Below, piece after piece: positions 1,278 to 11,959 of a stretch of 41,563 nucleotides of DNA. The notes beneath the pieces were generated by a model. The model saw only the letters and a program-made list of their open reading frames with translations. It did no database searches and had not been told where the DNA came from. The number at the start of each line of letters is the position of its first letter. Position 1 is the first letter of the stretch. Source of the stretch: Spirochaetota bacterium (GTDB taxonomy: Bacteria; Spirochaetota; Spirochaetia; Treponematales; UBA12059); assembly GCA_022703215.1 (NCBI GenBank), contig JAKLEE010000001.1, positions 1 through 41,563 of the forward strand, read 5' to 3'. Both the position numbers and the translations under genes were made by a program.

Positions 1278-2408
1278 ATGACCGGTCCTGAGGGTAGCCG
1301 CGGTCGACAGGCCGCCGCGGGAATGGCCATTCTCGCGGCGGCGGTTTTAGCCGGCTTCGCGCTCGCGGCGTGCGGCAAGCCCGCCCCGCGGTCGACTGAA
1401 GCCGTGTCCGATCCTTCCTACGCGGATGGCCTCATCCTGTACCTCACGGGCGCCGGCCTGGAGAATTCCGCCGACCTGGACGCCCGGACCTTCGCGCCGG
1501 CCCATGAGGCGGGCTTCATCGCGGCCCTGGCCTCCGCCGACGGCGGCGCCGCCCTCGCCATCAACCGCGCGGGAGCCGTACTCCTCGAGCTCGACGCGCG
1601 GACCCGTACGCTCAGGAAGAGGGAATACCCCACCCCCGAATTCGAGGGCAGGACGGTCGGCTCCATGTTCGTCGACGACGGGGGCGACATCCTCGTTTCC
1701 CTGTACCGGCATCCCGACGAAAACAGTCCCGACTCAGGCGGATCCTTGCTCAGGCTGGACCCTGGCTCCGGCATCTGGAGCGACGAAGGACTGCCGGCCC
1801 CCATCGACGCGGCGAGCGTCTACGCGATGCATCGCCTTGAAGACGGCCGCATCCTCGTGGCGACGCGGCGGGCCGAAGGCGATCGGATCGAGGCCGCCCG
1901 CTGGCTCGTCCGGCCCGACGGCAAGGTCGAGCCGCTGTCCCTGGCGGATTTCGAGAGCCTGCTCGCGCCCCGCCCGGCCCGACTGGCGCCACCGGCGCTT
2001 CGCGCCGCGCTCGGCAGCCTGGTCGAAGAGACCGGCGGCGCGCGGATTCTGGCCTACGCCCGGAATCCGCGCGGGGACGGAACCTGGTACGCCCTCGGCG
2101 ACGGAGCTCCCGAATCCACCGTGGAGGTCGTCGCCGCGATCGACGCATCGGGCACCGTCGCCTTCGCGGCGTTTCCCGAAGGCCCCGCCAAGACGGCGAG
2201 CTTCAAGGACGGGCTCGTGGAACTTTCCGATGTTTCGCTCGTCGCGCCGTCGCCGGGCGCCACCTGGAACGGCGCCCTGATCCATGGCGATTCGGAAGAT
2301 ACCCTCGTGCTCCTGCTCTCCTGGTGGGTGGAGCGCTTCCCCGACTCCGCGGGGAGCGGCTTGCTGGTCCGGCCGCTCGCTGGCCCCGGACGCGCCTCCG
2401 CGCTATAG
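1278..2408 (+). CDS. Hypothetical lipoprotein
   Basis: The N-terminus MTGPEGSRGRQAAAGMAILAAAVLAGFALAACGK has a charged n-region, a hydrophobic core and an L-A-A-C lipobox. Codon third-position GC bias is consistent with coding. No recognisable catalytic motif. An alternative start lies at 1323. Confidence 0.55.
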   Translation: MTGPEGSRGRQAAAGMAILAAAVLAGFALAACGKPAPRSTEAVSDPSYADGLILYLTGAGLENSADLDARTFAPAHEAGFIAALASADGGAALAINRAGAVLLELDARTRTLRKREYPTPEFEGRTVGSMFVDDGGDILVSLYRHPDENSPDSGGSLLRLDPGSGIWSDEGLPAPIDAASVYAMHRLEDGRILVATRRAEGDRIEAARWLVRPDGKVEPLSLADFESLLAPRPARLAPPALRAALGSLVEETGGARILAYARNPRGDGTWYALGDGAPESTVEVVAAIDASGTVAFAAFPEGPAKTASFKDGLVELSDVSLVAPSPGATWNGALIHGDSEDTLVLLLSWWVERFPDSAGSGLLVRPLAGPGRASAL

Positions 2409-2427
2409 TCGTAGCCGAGGTGTCCCG

Positions 2428-3180
2428 ATGAGCCCTTCCCGCGAGCGGATCGTCCTGTCGCTGCTGCTGGCCTCGTCCATGGCCGCGCACGCCATCGAGT
2501 TCGAAGCGCTGACGCCCCGTTTCGGCGTCGCGCTGGTCGCCAACGGCGTCCCCACGACCGACAGCGCGGCGGGTCCGATCGCCGGAACCGTCGGACTCGG
2601 GTTCCCGATGCCGATCGCAGCCGGATCCGCCTTGTCGTTCGAACCCGGCTTCGACGTGTTCTCCTACCACTCCGGGCTGCTCGAAACCCAACCCGCCACC
2701 GGACCCGTCCTCGAGCTCCCCCGCGCGGTTCCGGTCCCCGCGGAATCCGCGTCCTCCTCCTGGACCGCGGGACTGCTCCTGCAAGCGCCCTTCGTCTTTT
2801 CGCCGCGCCTGACGGGGACCTTCATGCCCGCCTTCGGCCTCGGACCGGCCATCCTCGTCCGCGTGGCCGCGGGGGGACCGACTCCGCTCGAGCTCAACGC
2901 CTGGTTTTTCGGGAAGGCCAGATGGCTATATGGAGAAGCGCTGATCGGCTTCGAAGTGGAGCTGGCGCCGCGGATGTCGCTGGCCGGAGGAATCCGGGGA
3001 CTCTACCCGCTCGCCAATCTCTGGACGGACGGCGATCCGGCGATGGCCCTCGACGGAGCCATCCTGCACCTGAGCCTCGGCATGCGCCTTTCATTCGGAA
3101 GTCCGGACGAAGAAGCGCCTCCGCCCGGGGGCGGCTCCGTCGAGGATGGCGGTTCCGCCGCGGACTCCGCCGCGCCATGA
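2428..3180 (+). CDS. Hypothetical secreted protein, possible outer-membrane beta-barrel
   Basis: The ATG at 2428 gives a signal peptide (MSPSRERIVLSLLLASSMAAHA). The body has alternating hydrophobic stretches, with a late strand LHLSLGMRLSF followed by an acidic, Gly/Pro-rich tail. The stop overlaps the next start (ATGA at 3177-3180). Confidence 0.5.
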   Translation: MSPSRERIVLSLLLASSMAAHAIEFEALTPRFGVALVANGVPTTDSAAGPIAGTVGLGFPMPIAAGSALSFEPGFDVFSYHSGLLETQPATGPVLELPRAVPVPAESASSSWTAGLLLQAPFVFSPRLTGTFMPAFGLGPAILVRVAAGGPTPLELNAWFFGKARWLYGEALIGFEVELAPRMSLAGGIRGLYPLANLWTDGDPAMALDGAILHLSLGMRLSFGSPDEEAPPPGGGSVEDGGSAADSAAP

Positions 3181-4444: not shown

Positions 4445-7140
4445 CGCCCGAGCAGGCTGCCGAGCGCCACGCTCAGGGCTTCGATGCCGAACGGCTTCCT
4501 CAGGAATTTGAGCTTCGGCAAGGCCCGGGCGCGCTCGATGCGCTCGTCCTCGTCGTAGCCGGAAACCAGCAGGATGGGCAGGTCGGATCGGTGGGCCCGG
4601 AGCGCCAGTGCCAGGTCGAGGCCTGACATTCCGGGCATGGCCAGGTCCAGCACGGCCGCCACATACTCGTCCGTGGCCGCCTCGAAACGCCGGATGGCCG
4701 ACTCGCCGCGGCTCTCGCCGAAGGCCTCGTACCCGCAAACCTTCAGCATGCGTCCGAGGCTTTCCAGCATCACCGCGTCATCCTCGACCACGAGCACGCG
4801 GCCCAGGCCCTTGCCGGAGACCATCGGGCGGCCCGTCGGCTCCGGCGCGGCCTCGGCGCTCGCGACGGCCGCGAGGGCGGGCAGCCGCAACTCGATCCTC
4901 GTTCCCCGGCCCAGCGTCGATTCCACGTGCACCGAACCGCCATGCCGTTCGGCGATGCCATAGACCATGGTGAGCCCGAGGCCGGAGCCCTTGCCGCCGA
5001 TCTTGGTGGTGAAAAACGGGTCGAAGATGCGTTCGATCGTCTCGGGTCGGATACCGACGCCCCGGTCCGTCACGGAAATGGCCCACAGCGCGGCGGCGCC
5101 ACCTTCCGGCTCCCCGTCGACGGATTCGGGACGCAGCCGCTCAAGGCCGACCGTGACCAAACCGCCGCGCGATTCGCCCTCGGCCCTCATGATGGTCATG
5201 GCGTCGCGGGCGTTGACGAGCAGGTTGAGCAAGGCCTGTTCCAGCTGGACAGCCTCGCCCATGGCCATGCAGGAGGAAGCCGGCCGCTCGAAGGCTATCT
5301 CGACCGACGGATCGAAGGTCCGCCGGCAAAGCTTGACCGTGGAATCCACGATTGATGCCAGGTCCACGGGGGCGAGAGTCATCTCCTGCCGTCGCGACAG
5401 GACGAGGAGCTGCCGGACCACCTCGGCTGCGTGGCGGGACGAGCGGAGTATCGACTGCACCGCCTCCTGCACCTCGGCCCTGTCCGGCGGCCTCGGGTCG
5501 TCGGCGGACAGTCCGAGCACGCTGGCGGTGCCGACGATGCCCCCGAGCACGTTGTTGAGGTCGTGTGCGAGACCGGCCGCCAGCGTGCCGACGGTCTCCA
5601 GCTTCTGCGAGCGCCGGAGCTGCCGCTCGAGCCGGTCGATATCAGCCAGGTCGAAAAACGAGATCACGACGCTCGTCGCCGAGGCCGGTCCCAGGGGCTC
5701 GAGCACCACGGAGAACGCCTTCCGTCCCGGCATGTCGAATTCCCTGCGGATGAAGGACTGCCGTTCCCGCAGGGACCGTGTCCGCTCCACGTCGGAACCG
5801 AGCTCCGCGAGCGCCGGACAGGCCTGCGCCAGGCCGCGTCCCATCAAGTCTTCCGGCTCGCGTCCGAACGCGTCGATGGCGGCCTCGTTCCAGGCTTCGA
5901 TGCGTCCCTTCGGATCCACCACGAGGATCGGCGTCGGCAGGGCATCGAGGAGTCCGCTCTGGAAGGCGCGAAGGTCGTCGAGGCGGTTCTCGCGATCACC
6001 GATGGCGGCCGCCATGGCGTTGACGGCCCTCGCGATGTCCCCGAGCTCGTCGCGCCAGGTTTCAGGCAGGCCGGGAAGGTAGGACCCCCGCTCCACGGCG
6101 CTGATCCCGCCTACCAGGGTCTCGATCCGCCGCACGAACCAGGTGAGCGTCGCGCGATAGGCCAAGGCTGCCGTCGCCAGTCCGAAAACGAGCACCGAGA
6201 GGGTGAGGAATATCCTCACGGTCCGGAGCGGCGCGAAGAACTCGTCGCGGTAGAGGCCGGCCGCGACGGTCCAGTTCCAGGGGCGGTAGTAAGCGACAAA
6301 GGTCAGCTTGGACCGCGGCCGGGCTTCCCCCGGATTCACCCAGCTGTATTCCGTCCAGGCCAGTTCGCCCTCGGGCCGCGAGACGAGCGTGCCCGCGAGC
6401 GCGACGAGACCGCGTGCGATCGCTTCGCCTTCGTCGTTCAGGATGTCCGAGGCGTCCACCGCCGCGAGGCGCGGGTGGAAGATCTCGTGAACCTTCCCGT
6501 TCCCGGAATCGTCCTCCGTCGAGCTCAGCGCGAAGACGTAGCCAGAGGTCCTCAGTCGCACCGCGGCCTTCGCGAGGTCGTAGACGAGCCTGAGCTGCAT
6601 CGGTCCGTTGGCGAATTCCTGCTGCCGCCGGAACGGAATGGTCTCGAGCGCGGTTTCGAGGGCACGCACGAGCTCCGCGTCGTCCACGACGTAGGCGCCC
6701 GATTCGATCCGCCCGATCTTGCGGGAGGACCACGACAGGCTTGAATCCAGGGGGGACACAACCAGCTCGGATGCGTCGATTCCCAGCTCCACGAACAGGC
6801 GCACCAGGAACGTGACGCTGAAGGACGCGACGCGGAATTCCGAGAGACGGCCGGCGTAGACCCGCCTCAGGCGCGCGATGGCAGACTCGATCGTCTCCTC
6901 GCCGCGCTCCACCCGCAAGCGGTGCTCGTCCACGAGCTCGAGCGCGCCGAGCACCGCGTCCTGCACCTGGCCGCGGGCGCTCGTCTCGAAGGAGTAGGCC
7001 GCGAGCCGGTACGCGAGGAAGCCCGTCACCGCGAGCGGCAGTATCGTCGCCGCGGCGACCGCCCCCGCGGCGCGCGCCGCGAGGGTCCCCCTGAAAGTCC
7101 GCGCGATGTGGGAGAACGGGCGGAAGCGGGCGTTGTTCAT
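4441..7140 (-). CDS. Hybrid sensor histidine kinase (periplasmic sensor, HAMP, PAS, HisKA, HATPase, C-terminal receiver)
   Basis: Two TM segments flank a roughly 270-aa extracytoplasmic region. H-box LAAGLAHDLNNVLGGI, N-box LLNLLVNARDAM and G-box GKGSGLGLTMVYGI are present. The receiver domain reads VLVVEDD...VLDLAMPGMSG...LRKPF. Confidence 0.9.
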   Translation of the reverse strand: MNNARFRPFSHIARTFRGTLAARAAGAVAAATILPLAVTGFLAYRLAAYSFETSARGQVQDAVLGALELVDEHRLRVERGEETIESAIARLRRVYAGRLSEFRVASFSVTFLVRLFVELGIDASELVVSPLDSSLSWSSRKIGRIESGAYVVDDAELVRALETALETIPFRRQQEFANGPMQLRLVYDLAKAAVRLRTSGYVFALSSTEDDSGNGKVHEIFHPRLAAVDASDILNDEGEAIARGLVALAGTLVSRPEGELAWTEYSWVNPGEARPRSKLTFVAYYRPWNWTVAAGLYRDEFFAPLRTVRIFLTLSVLVFGLATAALAYRATLTWFVRRIETLVGGISAVERGSYLPGLPETWRDELGDIARAVNAMAAAIGDRENRLDDLRAFQSGLLDALPTPILVVDPKGRIEAWNEAAIDAFGREPEDLMGRGLAQACPALAELGSDVERTRSLRERQSFIRREFDMPGRKAFSVVLEPLGPASATSVVISFFDLADIDRLERQLRRSQKLETVGTLAAGLAHDLNNVLGGIVGTASVLGLSADDPRPPDRAEVQEAVQSILRSSRHAAEVVRQLLVLSRRQEMTLAPVDLASIVDSTVKLCRRTFDPSVEIAFERPASSCMAMGEAVQLEQALLNLLVNARDAMTIMRAEGESRGGLVTVGLERLRPESVDGEPEGGAAALWAISVTDRGVGIRPETIERIFDPFFTTKIGGKGSGLGLTMVYGIAERHGGSVHVESTLGRGTRIELRLPALAAVASAEAAPEPTGRPMVSGKGLGRVLVVEDDAVMLESLGRMLKVCGYEAFGESRGESAIRRFEAATDEYVAAVLDLAMPGMSGLDLALALRAHRSDLPILLVSGYDEDERIERARALPKLKFLRKPFGIEALSVALGSLLGR

Positions 7141-7203
7141 GGGCTTTCCGAGCGAGGATATAGCGAATCGCCGATCGCGGCAAGCCGCGGATCGTCCCGC
7201 GGC

Positions 7204-8676
7204 CTAGTCGGCCAGGGTGACGGCTCCCGCGGCCGTACCGGCGCCCGCCGCGGCTATCGCCTCCGACTCGATGCCTGGCAGGGCCTCGGCGGCGTGCTCC
7301 CGGGTCAGGTTGCGAACCCAACGCTCGCCGCGAAGCCAGAGCCAGGCCGCCAGCCACTTCACGAAATCGGTCGTCTTGAGCAGCGCGAACATGGGCACGG
7401 GCCCCATGGGGGTGAGCAGGGCGAGCGCGAAGGCGCCCGGCAGGAACAGCAGCATATTCACGCCCACGTCCACCACCATGCCCATCATCGTGTCACCGCC
7501 CGCGCGGGAGACGGCGAACTGAGCGTTGAGCAAAGCCCAGAGGGGCAGGTACGCGGAGATGACGAAGAGGAGCCCCCGGCTCACCTCGCGCGCATCGGCG
7601 CTCAGGTTCCCGAATACTATGGGTATGCCGAGCGTGGAAAGCGCCTCGAGCGCGCCGAGCGCCGCTCCGGCGATGACCGCCCCGGATTGGATCCAGCGGG
7701 CCCGTTCGCGGGCTTCGTCGAGCCGGTCCGCCCCGAGCGCGCCGCCCACGGTCACGCCGGTGGCGGTGTGGATGCCCGTGAACACGAGGAAGAACACGTT
7801 GGCGATAGTCCAGCCGGCCGCCATGCCGGCCACGACCTCCGCGCCGCCCCGCCCGTTGTAGAGCGCGGTGATGACCGTCTCCGAAACCACCCAGGTGGTC
7901 TCGGACAGCAGCATCGGACCGGACTTGCGCACCACCTCGATGAAAAGCTTGAGGTTCACGCGCGCGAGCGCCCGCAGCTTCGGGATGAAGACCGTCCGGT
8001 CCATGCGGATGAACGCGAGGAAAGCCGCGAACTCGACGAGCCGCGCGATCACCGTCGCGATGGCCGCTCCGTTCACGCCGAGCCGAGGCGCCCCGAGCGA
8101 ACCGTAGATCAGCAGCCAGTTGAAGAAGGTGTTGACCAGGGTCGCCGCCACGGAGATGTACAGCGGAGGGCGGGCCCTTCCGATCTCGCGCAGCCCGGTC
8201 GCGATCGAGGTGGAAACGGCCATCGGAATCCAGGCGATGGACACGATGCGCAGGTAGCCGGCCGCCTCGCGGATGATCTCGGGCCCCTGCGGATTACCGC
8301 CCAGCATGAGGGCGACCATGCGCTCGGGAATGGCGAGCGTCAGGAAGAGCCAGATCCCGGAAACGGCCAGCGAGGCCGCCAGCTTGAAGCGGTAAGCCTG
8401 GCGCATCCCCTCTTCGTCGCCCGAGCCCTTGAACTGCGACAGGTAGATGCCGCCCGCGCCGCACAGGGTGAACAGCACGACGAAGTAGACGAAGTTCACC
8501 TGGTTGGCAACGTTGACCGCGGCCATGCGCGCGTCGCCCAAGCCGGCCACCATGAAGTTGTCCACGAGGGACACGAGGCTCATGACGGCCTGCTGGAGCA
8601 TCACCGGGACGGCGACGCCGAGCGCGGTTCGGTAGAACGACCAGGGGCCGAGGAGCGGAATCCGGTTACGCGCCAT
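7204..8676 (-). CDS. MATE family efflux transporter
   Basis: The product has about 12 predicted TM segments and a typical MATE N-terminus (YRTALGVAVPVMLQQAVMSLVSLVDNFMVAGLG). ATG at 8676; an in-frame GTG at 8679 is an alternative start. Confidence 0.88.
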   Translation of the reverse strand: MARNRIPLLGPWSFYRTALGVAVPVMLQQAVMSLVSLVDNFMVAGLGDARMAAVNVANQVNFVYFVVLFTLCGAGGIYLSQFKGSGDEEGMRQAYRFKLAASLAVSGIWLFLTLAIPERMVALMLGGNPQGPEIIREAAGYLRIVSIAWIPMAVSTSIATGLREIGRARPPLYISVAATLVNTFFNWLLIYGSLGAPRLGVNGAAIATVIARLVEFAAFLAFIRMDRTVFIPKLRALARVNLKLFIEVVRKSGPMLLSETTWVVSETVITALYNGRGGAEVVAGMAAGWTIANVFFLVFTGIHTATGVTVGGALGADRLDEARERARWIQSGAVIAGAALGALEALSTLGIPIVFGNLSADAREVSRGLLFVISAYLPLWALLNAQFAVSRAGGDTMMGMVVDVGVNMLLFLPGAFALALLTPMGPVPMFALLKTTDFVKWLAAWLWLRGERWVRNLTREHAAEALPGIESEAIAAAGAGTAAGAVTLAD

Positions 8677-8685
8677 CACGGATGC

Positions 8686-9036
8686 CTAGTTCCGTCCGAA
8701 GCGGGCCATGAACCCGGGGATATCCGTGTAGTTGCTTTCCGCGACGAGAGCTCCGTCGCGGTAGTAGCGGACGTAGGGCACCTCGCGGTTCCCGAGGAAG
8801 TCTTCCTTCCAGTTCATGAATTCGTCGAAAAACGGCTCCGTGTCGTACTCGACCCAGAACACGGCCGGGTCGTCCGGAGCGGCAAGGCCTTCGAGCTTGC
8901 GTCGCAGATGGATCCACTGCGGACACCAACCCTGGGTCAGCACGACGGCCACGCGCGGCGCGGCGCCGAGGATATCCTTCCCGAATTCACCCGCGGCGAT
9001 GGCCGCCAGGCACTGATCCTTCGAAAGCTTCGTCAT
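8686..9036 (-). CDS. Thioredoxin-fold protein with single-Cys W-C-P-Q-W motif (hypothetical)
   Basis: The ATG at 9036 gives MTKLSKDQ... The stretch VAVVLTQGWCPQW sits where thioredoxins carry WCxxC. The gene ends 7 nt before the MATE gene start, so the two likely share an operon. Confidence 0.45.
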   Translation of the reverse strand: MTKLSKDQCLAAIAAGEFGKDILGAAPRVAVVLTQGWCPQWIHLRRKLEGLAAPDDPAVFWVEYDTEPFFDEFMNWKEDFLGNREVPYVRYYRDGALVAESNYTDIPGFMARFGRN

Positions 9037-9043
9037 GGACGCA

Positions 9044-9072
9044 AGGATATCGACGCGCGCACGTTTGGCCAA
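9044..9072 (-). promoter_or_regulatory. Putative sigma70-like promoter, leaderless type, for 8686-9036
   Basis: On the minus strand: TTGGCC (9067-9072), a 17-nt spacer, then TATCCT (9044-9049). Only 7 nt separate the -10 from the ATG at 9036, and there is no Shine-Dalgarno. Confidence 0.35.
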
Positions 9073-9190
9073 TGGGGACGGAGCCGGCGCTCTGGCTTTT
9101 CGGATCAAGCCGCCTTGTGGACAGGGCCCTTGGTGACAGTGATGGGCCATTGGGGACAGGGACGGTCCGCGCCAAAAATCTTGTCCGATG

Positions 9191-9219
9191 CTGACCCGAG
9201 CGTCCTCATGGGGTATGCT
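9191..9219 (+). promoter_or_regulatory. Putative promoter, leaderless type, for the omptin-patatin operon
   Basis: CTGACC (9191-9196), a 17-nt spacer, then TATGCT (9214-9219). Nine nt separate the -10 from the ATG at 9229, and there is no Shine-Dalgarno. Confidence 0.3.
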
Positions 9220-9228
9220 TCCGCCATC

Positions 9229-10209
9229 ATGAGCAAGTTCCACGGCGCCCGGTGCGCATCGTTCGCGTTGGTATCAGTGATGACGCTGCTCGCACCCAGC
9301 CTCGCCCCGGCCCAGGAATCGCCGTCCGCATCGGCCGCGCTACCATCCGCGGAGGACCCCGGGACAAGCGCCCCGATCCTCACGCTCGCGACGGGACCCG
9401 TGCTGGTCGTCGGCTACATGGACGAGCTCGTCTACCGCGACTCGAAGACGACCGAGCTGCTCTCGAAGCTCCGCTGGCAGCTCATGCCCGCCGCGGGCCT
9501 CAGGCTCGACGCGGTCCTGAGCCCCCGCTGGAAGGCGCCGGTATCTTTCGCTCTCTCTGTCACGACACTGTTTCCTACGATCACGGGGACCATGGTGGAC
9601 GAGGACTGGGATACCGGCACCCTGGTCTACGGACGCTCGGAGCATCAGGCGCAGCTGGCTCGGGCGATCGACGCCGCGCTGCTCGCGTCGTGGAGCTGGC
9701 CAAGCCTTGGATTGAGGCTCGGCGCCGGCGCGGCCGTTTCGGATCTATCGTGGGAAGGATGGGACGGTTCCGCGGTCTACGAATACTCGACCTACACCAG
9801 CACTCCCGCATTCTTCGGGATCGTCATCGCCTACCGGGCGCTCAGGCTCGGCCCCGCCCTCGCGGCGGACTGGGAGCGCTCGCTTGGCGGGTTCGATTTC
9901 CGGATCGGTATCGAACTTCGCTACCACGCACTCCAGTGGGGCGTGGACTCCCACCTCGCACGAAATCCGGACGTAACTTTTTTCGACGTCATGGCGGGTG
10001 GCTTCGCGCTCAATCCATCCGTTTCCGCCTCGCGCGAGCTCGCGCCCGGACTCACGACGAGCGTCCACGCCGCCGCTTCCGTCGAGCGCTGGGCGCGCGG
10101 AGACGACTACGCGATCGAGGACGACGGGACGATCACGCTCTACGAGGGCATAGCGGGCCAGGAATTCACAGCCTTCTCCCTCTCATTCCTGGTAAAGGTC
10201 GAGCGATGA
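9229..10209 (+). CDS. Omptin-family outer-membrane aspartyl protease-like beta-barrel
   Basis: Signal peptide MSKFHGARCASFALVSVMTLLAPSLAPAQE. Landmarks match OmpT/Pla by eye: DELVY..LSKLRW (OmpT ERVY..VSQLDW), GTMVDEDWD (GNMVDQDWMD, Asp83/Asp85), GVDSH (NDEH, Asp210/His212), and the C-terminal strand FTAFSLSFLVKVER. An alternative start lies at 9208. Confidence 0.72.
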   Translation: MSKFHGARCASFALVSVMTLLAPSLAPAQESPSASAALPSAEDPGTSAPILTLATGPVLVVGYMDELVYRDSKTTELLSKLRWQLMPAAGLRLDAVLSPRWKAPVSFALSVTTLFPTITGTMVDEDWDTGTLVYGRSEHQAQLARAIDAALLASWSWPSLGLRLGAGAAVSDLSWEGWDGSAVYEYSTYTSTPAFFGIVIAYRALRLGPALAADWERSLGGFDFRIGIELRYHALQWGVDSHLARNPDVTFFDVMAGGFALNPSVSASRELAPGLTTSVHAAASVERWARGDDYAIEDDGTITLYEGIAGQEFTAFSLSFLVKVER

Positions 10210-11285
10210 GCCGGCTCCGCGGCCCGATACGGGTGCTCTCGATCGACGGAGGCGGCATACGCGGCTATGCGCCCGCCCTGGTGCTGGCCGACCTCGAGCG
10301 GCGGCGGCAGAAGCTGGGGAAATCCGGGAGCCTCGCCTCGCGCTTCGATCTGGTCGCGGGAACCTCGACGGGTGCGCTCATCGCCCTGGCCCTGCAGGCC
10401 CAGTCCGGCGAGCCGGGTTCCGGGAGGGCCATCGGAAGCGCGCGGGGCGCCGGCTCGGTTTTCGGGCGGCCGGCTTTCGGCGCGCCGCGGCGCTTCACCT
10501 GCTCCCAAATCGCCGAGCTGTACGAACGCCGCGGAGGGGAGCTCTTCCCCCGGCATCGGCACGAGAGCATCGGCCTCGTGCGGCAGGCCCTCTCCTCGAA
10601 GTACGACGCCGAGCCCCTCGAGCGCTTCCTCCGGGAAACCCTCGGCGAGACGAGGCTCTCGCAGGCCGCGGGTCCCGTCCTCGTGACCGCTTACGATCCG
10701 GAGCGCGACGAGTCGCTCGTCATGAAGAACCTCGGCGACGGCCCCGACTTCCTCGCCCGCGACGCCGCCCGCGCCTCGAGCGCGGCCCCCACCTACTTCC
10801 CCGCCGCCCGGATCCGGGAATTGCCGCCTCCGGGCGCTCCGGAGCTCGCCGCGGGTCAAGTCCGGATGCGAACGCTCGTCGACGGCGGACTTTTCGCCAA
10901 CAACCCGGCCATGTGCGCCTGGGTGGAGGCGCGCAAGCTCAGGCCGGACGCGCGCCGCTTCCTCGTCGTCTCGCTCGGCACGGGCGGCGCCGTCAGGGCG
11001 TGGAACATCGGCAAGCTCGCGCGCTGGGGCTACCTGGACTGGATCGACCCCGGCAAGGGCTCTCCGCTCCTGGCCATGATGGGCCGCGCCCAGTCGGAAT
11101 CGGTCGACTGGATGCTCGCGCACCTGCCGGGCATCGACTACGTGCGGCTCGATCCGAACCTTTCGGCGGAAACCTCGGCCATCGACGATGCCTCGCCCGC
11201 AAACCTGGCCAGGCTGCGGACCGCCGCCCTCGACCTCATCGCCGACAACGAAGCCCTGCTCGAGGATTTGGCCGAGAAGCTCTAG
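10206..11285 (+). CDS. Patatin-like phospholipase
   Basis: Oxyanion motif DGGGIRG, nucleophile elbow GTSTG and catalytic Asp in VDGGLFANNP are all present. The ATG at 10206 overlaps the omptin-like stop (ATGA). No signal peptide is evident. Confidence 0.9.
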   Translation: MSRLRGPIRVLSIDGGGIRGYAPALVLADLERRRQKLGKSGSLASRFDLVAGTSTGALIALALQAQSGEPGSGRAIGSARGAGSVFGRPAFGAPRRFTCSQIAELYERRGGELFPRHRHESIGLVRQALSSKYDAEPLERFLRETLGETRLSQAAGPVLVTAYDPERDESLVMKNLGDGPDFLARDAARASSAAPTYFPAARIRELPPPGAPELAAGQVRMRTLVDGGLFANNPAMCAWVEARKLRPDARRFLVVSLGTGGAVRAWNIGKLARWGYLDWIDPGKGSPLLAMMGRAQSESVDWMLAHLPGIDYVRLDPNLSAETSAIDDASPANLARLRTAALDLIADNEALLEDLAEKL

Positions 11286-11871: not shown

Positions 11872-11879
11872 GTCGTGAT

Positions 11880-11907
11880 AATATAGGTTTTTCTCTATCT
11901 ACGACAA
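11880..11907 (-). promoter_or_regulatory. Putative promoter, leaderless type, for 11302-11871
   Basis: On the minus strand: TTGTCG (11902-11907), a 16-nt spacer, then TATATT (11880-11885). Eight nt separate the -10 from the ATG at 11871. The element sits in an AT-rich island within GC-rich DNA. Confidence 0.35.
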
Positions 11908-11929
11908 GGCCGCCGGTCTCCCGGCGGCC
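11908..11929 (-). terminator. Stem-loop downstream of pckG (possible terminator)
   Basis: GGCCGCCGG-tctc-CCGGCGGCC forms a 9-bp perfect stem about 30 nt after the pckG stop. There is no clean U-tract. Confidence 0.35.
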
Positions 11930-11959
11930 GTGGCGTCACAATCGGCCTAAGGCGCCTTA

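Follow-up and report, generated by a model that had tools for sequence, protein, structure and literature searches.

The stretch of DNA analysed here, a window of 41,563 nucleotides from a Spirochaetota bacterium (assembly GCA_022703215.1, contig JAKLEE010000001.1), carries two genuine genes on the plus strand within positions 9229-11285, the first encoding an omptin-family protease and the second, directly downstream, a patatin-like phospholipase. We consider the pair to be probably a lineage-specific bicistronic operon of an uncultured, high-GC (guanine plus cytosine) clade of Spirochaetales, whose two enzymes would work independently of each other on the cell envelope or its lipids. Because the pairing is confined to one narrow lineage and each gene occurs alone elsewhere, it would be an ordinary lineage-specific operon and not a new protease-lipase system. 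A first-pass annotation, made from the letters of the window alone, had assigned both families and proposed a dedicated protease-lipase module; the family assignments held up under profile and structure comparison, and the module was not supported.

The product of the first gene is a true omptin, predicted to reside in the outer membrane. It matches the Pfam Omptin family (PF01278; MEROPS A26) at 44.8 bits against a cut-off of 22.6 (E 1.1e-11), over profile positions 9-276 of 283, and the same model is matched by 40 of 40 aligned relatives. With the NCBIfam model of the enterobacterial omptin subfamily there is no meaningful match (13 bits), and a single-sequence phmmer search of the PDB returned neither OmpT nor Pla, only chance matches to gp41; both results place the protein as a distant member of the family. 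A word-indexed homologue search gave merely five close relatives, which come from metagenome-assembled genomes of Spirochaetales or Spirochaetes, and an exhaustive hidden Markov model (HMM) search covering 1.84 billion representatives gave 110 at E <= 1e-3, only 23 of them at E <= 1e-10. One close relative (P0003) has already been named "omptin family outer membrane protease" by NCBI. The relationship to solved omptins emerges only with a profile: that of the 40-sequence family aligns end to end with Pla of Yersinia pestis (2x55, E 1.3e-38) and OmpT of E. coli (1i78, E 2.5e-30), although the spirochaete protein is only 18-20% identical to the solved omptins.

The AlphaFold2 model of the omptin (predicted local distance difference test, pLDDT, 89.8; predicted template modelling score, pTM, 0.81) has ten long strands within residues 50-325, in agreement with the ten-stranded barrel that the first-pass annotation had expected. 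Its best PDB matches are Pla (template modelling score, TM, 0.82-0.83) and OmpT (TM 0.81-0.85), well above OpcA and other barrels. The four catalytic positions that had been picked out by eye were recovered when Pla was mapped onto the protein with hmmalign: Pla D84, D86, D206 and H208, whose OmpT counterparts are D83, D85, D210 and H212, fall on D124, D126, D240 and H242, and E29, S99 and H101 fall on E66, S137 and H139. All the mapped positions vary little or not at all within the family: among the 40 relatives D126, D240 and H242 never change, and D124 is retained in at least 90%. From the modelled fold and these residues we infer that the protein is proteolytically active. Read by eye, its N-terminus opens with a basic n-region that leads through a hydrophobic core to an APA-QE site, a pattern that suggests a signal peptide like those of OmpT and Pla; unlike in those enzymes, a Pro/Ser/Ala-rich linker of about 20 residues then runs to about residue 49. 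The model gives a helix at residues 5-25, low confidence at 25-40 and the barrel from residue 50.

Several departures from the enterobacterial enzymes bear on how this omptin may work. The activity of OmpT and Pla depends on lipopolysaccharide (LPS), and the active sites of omptins face the cell exterior. In the hmmalign map the LPS-binding residues Y134, E136, R138 and R171 of Pla correspond to A168, V170, D172 and L205 of the window omptin and are not conserved, being a property of the enterobacterial enzymes and not a defining feature of the Pfam family. The acidic S1 pocket (OmpT E27/D208; Pla E29/D204) confers specificity for basic residues. Here the Glu is kept (E66), whereas the second acidic residue, Pla D204, is replaced by G238, so that cleavage specificity is probably altered. 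The missing LPS-binding and S1 residues hint at an activity that would be independent of LPS and directed at different cleavage sites. By eye, the LPS-binding triad also seems to be absent from other, distant spirochaete omptins, and the S1 Asp is likewise not conserved in them. At the other end of the protein, the terminal aromatic strand described in the first-pass annotation stands in part: aromatic residues are present in the last strand, but the C-terminal residue is Arg (FLVKVER) instead of the Phe of OmpT and Pla.

The second gene encodes a patatin-like phospholipase or acyl hydrolase, which matches PF01734 at 86.9 bits (cut-off 27.7). The GGGxRG, GTSTG and DGG motifs are intact, as had been noted from the sequence, and across 64 homologues no variation is seen at G15-G17, R19, G20, S54 or D226. 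The protein begins MSRLRGPIRVLSIDGGGIRG, which places the first strand and the glycine loop of the patatin domain at the very N-terminus; it therefore has no export signal, in line with the first-pass annotation, and its predicted location is the cytoplasm or the inner membrane. Its model (pLDDT 87.9, pTM 0.90) has low confidence only in loops 81-87 and 120-127, and superposes best on plant patatin-17 (PDB 1oxw / 4pk9; TM 0.78), then on AbCapV (PDB 8zr9; TM 0.75-0.78). The same order is given by the profile of the spirochaete patatin family, with 199 bits for patatin-17 versus 134-151 bits for CapV-type CBASS (cyclic-oligonucleotide-based antiphage signalling system) lipases. Patatin-17 and the window protein share the Ser-Asp dyad, the Gly-rich oxyanion loop, a single-domain architecture and a similar length, although they are 26% identical and the window protein is bacterial, predicted cytoplasmic and equipped with clade-specific loops. 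These loops, at residues ~66-100 and 205-221, are Gly/Ala/Arg-rich and Pro-rich, the first having low model confidence. They are two insertions apart from which the patatins of the pair clade are collinear with their unpaired relatives, and the catalytic pocket residues of the two groups are identical.

The two genes overlap by four base pairs, as reported in the first-pass annotation. The omptin reading frame ends GTC GAG CGA TGA, and its TGA (10207-10209) shares positions 10207-10208 with the patatin ATG (10206-10208). A Shine-Dalgarno-like AAGG at 10195-10198 precedes this ATG by 7-8 nt. Omptin loci were retrieved with a 15-sequence subset, which yielded five genome loci and 13 metagenome loci. 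At L001/L008, L002, L007, L019, L020 and L032 the omptin is 71-99% identical to that of the window and a patatin gene follows immediately in the same synteny; the 4-bp overlap is present in L001, L002 and L032, where gene calls exist. Because their synteny is fully shared, these close-relative loci together amount to roughly one observation. A further locus, L012, is a 1185-bp contig whose omptin (P0126) is 43-44% identical to the window's, with a stop codon that again overlaps the next gene start as ATGA. The downstream gene begins MSARIRGPIRILSIDGGGIRGYIPALVLADLERRR, and the fragment is 78% identical to the N-terminus of the window patatin. A search with P0126 returned P0126 alone. The pair with its overlap is thus kept throughout one clade of uncultured Spirochaetales, and about two independent observations of it are at hand. 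Both genes are under purifying selection in comparison with relatives (dN/dS, the ratio of nonsynonymous to synonymous substitution rates, 0.17-0.37 for the omptin and 0.12-0.15 for the patatin), and nonsynonymous change is 1.5- to 3.6-fold faster in the omptin, as expected for a surface-exposed protein.

Among more distant relatives each gene stands without the other. No patatin gene lies within 4-5 kb of the omptin at any of ten distant spirochaete omptin loci (29-35% identity), so the neighbourhood survey suggested by the first-pass annotation upheld the adjacency at the seven loci above (L001, L002, L007, L019, L020, L032 and L012) but not beyond them. Eight examined distant loci (L009 4144-10435; L010 4209-10494; L024, L025, L028, L030, L022 and L027) carry a conserved block of TrmH/SpoU-like methyltransferase, omptin, ROK kinase, Ppx-GppA and polyphosphate kinase (PPK) genes, which is a second, separate conserved context of omptins in Spirochaetes. 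Leptospira LIC20019 is an omptin-like protein that has been modelled as Pla-like (PMC5406399). Both it and the omptins of the methyltransferase-ROK-Ppx-PPK locus resemble the window omptin in being omptin barrels with conserved catalytic residues, and differ from it in sequence (25-35% identical), in their contexts and in having no patatin partner.

Other Spirochaetes commonly carry patatin relatives at 41-47% identity. Seven that are unpaired, from Rectinemataceae, Alkalispirochaeta and other Spirochaetes, occupy seven differing contexts, which include a MatE gene overlapping the patatin start, an MFS transporter, trehalase, ArsP and DUF6657; neither an omptin nor a cyclase stands beside any of the seven, and no PADLOC match was found in those contexts. 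A habitual position of the patatin downstream of a membrane-protein gene was considered, with MatE, MFS, ArsP or a multi-transmembrane protein upstream in four relatives, and rejected, as two further contexts did not fit. The patatin gene of the nearest unpaired relative (P0009, 44-45% identity; L013 3495-5917) is translationally coupled to a MatE efflux gene, with which it shares four base pairs. Two genes upstream of the window omptin, on the opposite strand, there is also a MatE gene (7204-8679), possibly left over from an ancestral neighbourhood in which MatE and patatin genes adjoined.

For some secreted bacterial phospholipases, activation comes from a partner protease, and the coupling might likewise be explained by a dedicated protease-lipase module with the patatin as the omptin's target for cleavage, activation or release. 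The persistence of translational coupling down to 44% omptin identity would fit such a module, as would the patatin loop at ~66-100, whose low model confidence makes it in principle a cleavable segment. On the other hand, the patatin lacks a signal peptide, its N-terminus being already the first strand and Gly loop of the fold, and the active sites of omptins point outward, so that the activation or release proposed in the first-pass annotation lacks a topological route. With the omptin predicted in the outer membrane, its active site directed outward, and the patatin predicted in the cytoplasm or inner membrane, it is improbable that the protease acts directly on the lipase to activate or release it. 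Secretion genes were not found nearby, the patatin catalytic pocket is that of the unpaired relatives, and both proteins occur without each other in other Spirochaetes; the seven patatin contexts devoid of an omptin are an outcome that had been named in advance as counting against a module. Such a module is therefore unlikely. The dependence could also be turned around, with a lipid environment produced by the patatin, for instance of lysolipids or free fatty acids, conditioning the membrane for an omptin that lacks LPS-binding residues. The replacement of Pla Y134/E136/R138/R171 by A168/V170/D172/L205 in a family whose OmpT and Pla are LPS-dependent would suit this idea, and co-translation would supply both proteins together. 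However, the distant spirochaete omptins that appear by eye to lack the LPS triad manage without a patatin partner, it is hard to see how a lipase in the cytoplasm could alter the outer leaflet of the outer membrane, and the idea is purely inferential; we regard it as very unlikely.

The patatin could alternatively be an orphan CapV-like abortive-infection or defence effector, a nucleotide-activated suicide lipase with the omptin as accessory or sensor. AbCapV is a cGAMP-activated CBASS phospholipase in which F147, K149, D159, E207 and R279 contact cGAMP (PMC12480259). It belongs to the same patatin subclass as the window protein and is likewise a single domain with no export signal; the two structures superpose as given above, and the PADLOC model of CBASS phospholipase effectors scores 201.5 bits. 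The NCBIfam CBASS_lipase model (NF041079) scores 157.4 bits, under its equivalog cut-off of 200, and the family profile lies nearer to plant patatin, which is not known to require a nucleotide activator. No CD-NTase or other CBASS gene and no PADLOC match was found among the neighbours in the window or in any context examined, the surrounding genes are of a housekeeping kind with stable synteny and no GC anomaly, and no omptin forms part of any PADLOC defence system, nor is one known from any other. What favours the suicide or defence role suggested earlier is family-level similarity to CapV; the context gives it no support, and it is highly improbable. Other patatin systems are more remote. 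PlpD of Pseudomonas aeruginosa (type Vd) does associate a patatin domain with an outer-membrane beta-barrel, as is the case here, but its patatin has a signal peptide and forms one polypeptide with POTRA and a 16-stranded Omp85 barrel, whereas the window patatin has neither POTRA nor signal peptide, its barrel is a separate omptin and not an Omp85 protein, and the structural match to PlpD is weaker (TMq 0.53). ExoU and VipD are large multidomain proteins with a C-terminal targeting domain, delivered by type III or type IV secretion systems, and match the single-domain window patatin of 359 residues poorly (TMq 0.30-0.39), with no secretion genes in the neighbourhood. In its broadest form, a dedicated two-component envelope module unique to this spirochaete clade would comprise either an interdependent LPS-independent surface protease and CapV/patatin-17-class lipase or a cyclase-less suicide or defence effector; in the interdependent version, envelope damage might lead to release and proteolytic activation of the lipase, or the lipase might provide the lipids that the protease needs around it. 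This, too, is quite unlikely.

The region upstream of the omptin is rich in motifs, as the first-pass annotation had stated. When the intergenic region was compared with those of three relatives, the last ~40 nt before ATG 9229 were nearly invariant and the middle differed in length. The motif GGGGACRGRGC, or in its stricter form GGGGACRGAGC, is present in 3-4 copies in the window and in 2-7 copies in relatives: two in L001 (7888-7934), and six or seven as an 18-bp tandem array in L002 (7772-7888), L007 (4714-4867) and L020 (1529-1645). Tandem Repeats Finder detected no tandem array upstream of the window omptin, though relatives have one. At one mismatch the motif was found 18 times window-wide versus 10.5 expected, an enrichment that is not significant. 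In relatives it also lies ahead of the convergent Fer4_5 gene, between its promoter and the terminator of the phosphoenolpyruvate carboxykinase (PEPCK) gene (L001 10754-10764; L002 10701-10820), where the window has no copy. In L012 a similar GGGGGACGG is found ~35 nt ahead of the omptin ATG. The motif could be a variable or dispersed intergenic repeat, or a site for a regulator.

Closer to the gene lies a candidate sigma-70-type promoter, whose TGAC and GTATGCT positions are invariant in the alignment of relatives and whose TATGCT ends 9 nt before ATG 9229. In L012 the corresponding TATACT is 7 nt before the omptin ATG (-10-like region at 121-136). A consensus promoter scan upstream of the omptin found nothing, because the site matches only 8 of 12 positions. 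No Shine-Dalgarno sequence precedes ATG 9229, and this arrangement suggests that the omptin mRNA may be leaderless or have a very short leader. Some gene calls (P0001, P0002) start the omptin at ATG 9208; the -10-like hexamer 7-9 nt before the omptin ATG, together with the missing Shine-Dalgarno, favours the start at 9229.

For the preferred reading, an operon of two independent enzymes, the following course of events can be proposed. Transcription would proceed from the sigma-70-like promoter ahead of ATG 9229 and give a leaderless or short-leader mRNA. The omptin would be exported via Sec, cut after Ala28 and inserted in the outer membrane as a roughly 10-stranded barrel, where the outward-facing Asp124/Asp126 and Asp240/His242 would activate water to cleave surface or external peptides. 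With its LPS-binding residues and one S1 acid lost, it would probably act independently of LPS and would not share the enterobacterial specificity for dibasic sites. Ribosomes ending at the omptin UGA would re-initiate at the overlapping AUG to make the patatin. This second enzyme would not be exported; from the cytoplasm or inner membrane it would work as a lipid acyl hydrolase with a Ser54-Asp226 dyad, a member of the structural class of plant patatin-17 and CapV. The two enzymes would be linked by co-expression, plausibly within a shared envelope-maintenance programme, and neither would act on the other. In evolutionary terms, the patatin may be an ordinary, vertically inherited, stand-alone spirochaete gene, directly upstream of which the omptin gene would have arrived in one lineage, with translational coupling following.

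Some points weigh against this proposal. The 4-bp overlap has been kept even though the omptins have diverged to 44% identity, which suggests selection for co-expression; there is a small though appreciable chance that its retention reflects a genuine functional dependence, of which various forms are conceivable. As the pair is seen in about two independent lineages, neither a functional nor an incidental pairing can be established statistically. The location of the patatin is deduced solely from its absent signal peptide, and patatins of the ExoU and VipD type are exported without Sec signals. The promoter and the leaderless start are read from conservation, and the support as a whole comes from sequence and predicted structure.

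Table 1. Features of the omptin-patatin locus, in window positions
Feature	Position	Strand	Basis or remark
Divergent intergenic region between the 116-aa gene (-) and the omptin gene	9038..9228	.	~190 bp; carries the repeated motif and the candidate promoter
GGGGACRGRGC copies at 9074-9084, 9117-9127 and 9152-9162, with a degenerate copy near 9132	9074..9162	+	motif search
Candidate sigma-70-type promoter: CTGACC (9191-9196), 17-nt spacer, TATGCT (9214-9219)	9191..9219	+	conservation
Omptin-family outer-membrane aspartic protease gene	9229..10209	+	326 aa; Pfam, family profile, AlphaFold2 model
Predicted Sec signal peptide, residues 1-28 (SLAPA, then QE)	9229..9312	+	read from sequence by eye
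D124-E125-D126 codons, first catalytic Asp pair (Pla D84/D86)	9598..9606	+	profile map, alignment of relatives
LPS-site equivalents A168-D172 and L205	9730-9744; 9841-9843	+	profile map to Pla
G238 codon (Pla D204 equivalent)	9940-9942	+	profile map to Pla
D240-S241-H242 codons, catalytic Asp-His pair (Pla D206/H208)	9946..9954	+	profile map, alignment of relatives
ATGA 4-bp overlap of omptin stop and patatin start	10206..10209	+	same overlap in L001, L002, L032, L012
Patatin-like phospholipase / acyl hydrolase gene	10206..11285	+	359 aa; no export signal
G15-G16-G17-I18-R19-G20 codons (GGGIRG), oxyanion hole and phosphate-binding loop	10248..10265	+	sequence, homologue alignment
G52-T-S54-T-G56 codons (GTSTG), nucleophile elbow with catalytic Ser54	10359..10373	+	sequence, homologue alignment
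D226-G-G codons (DGG), catalytic Asp of the Ser-Asp dyad	10881..10889	+	sequence, homologue alignment

The genes around the pair are of a housekeeping kind, and their synteny is stable across close relatives: ThrE-family genes, a hybrid histidine kinase, MatE, a 116-aa protein, the omptin, the patatin, a Fer4_5 membrane protein, GTP-PEPCK and an aldehyde:ferredoxin oxidoreductase follow one another. No cyclase, POTRA domain or secretion gene was found within ~8 kb of the pair, which bears out the first-pass annotation on this point. The neighbours gave no PADLOC match, and PADLOC and NCBIfam scans of those without annotation gave nothing relevant. No GC or compositional anomaly was seen at the locus, a viral-contig scan found no relatives, and an Rfam scan of the window had no match. 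The GC content around the locus is 62-73%, to which the abundance of long spurious open reading frames in the window can be attributed. Three of these were rejected as artefacts of 65-73% GC: the frames at 6922-10209 (+, 1095 aa) and 9252-11285 (+, 677 aa) are read-through artefacts that overlap the genuine genes, and that at 10140-11123 (-, 327 aa) is an antisense artefact; none of the three merits annotation.

A few other elements nearby are conserved. The 116-aa protein (8686-9036, -), divergent from the omptin, contains a WCPQW motif and is kept in all syntenic relatives; it has no match in Pfam, NCBIfam or PADLOC. Upstream of the ThrE genes, at 1278-3180 (+), lie two more conserved proteins, of 376 aa and ~250 aa, whose order is kept in L001 and L002 and which have no match in these three collections either. 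The sole consensus sigma-70-like site of the region is at 11907-11878 (-), just upstream of the Fer4_5 gene (TTGTCG, 16-18 nt, TATATT/TATTAT). This promoter-like site (within 11872-11959, -) comes after a GC-rich hairpin that resembles the terminator of the PEPCK gene (GGCCGCCGGGAGACCGGCGGCC).

Both proteins are divergent new members of known families and are already so named in public annotation, and the arrangement in which they occur is new but phylogenetically narrow. In the literature searched, omptins and patatins were linked nowhere except within autotransporter reviews. A functional pairing, if true, would for the first time connect an omptin with a lipase and would provide an omptin that works without LPS. 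For the patatin, its place in a widespread family of stand-alone spirochaete lipases indicates that a CapV-like sequence signature alone does not point to a defence system. For the omptins, the occurrence in environmental Spirochaetales of catalytically intact members without LPS-binding residues bears on the view of this family as LPS-dependent and enterobacterial.

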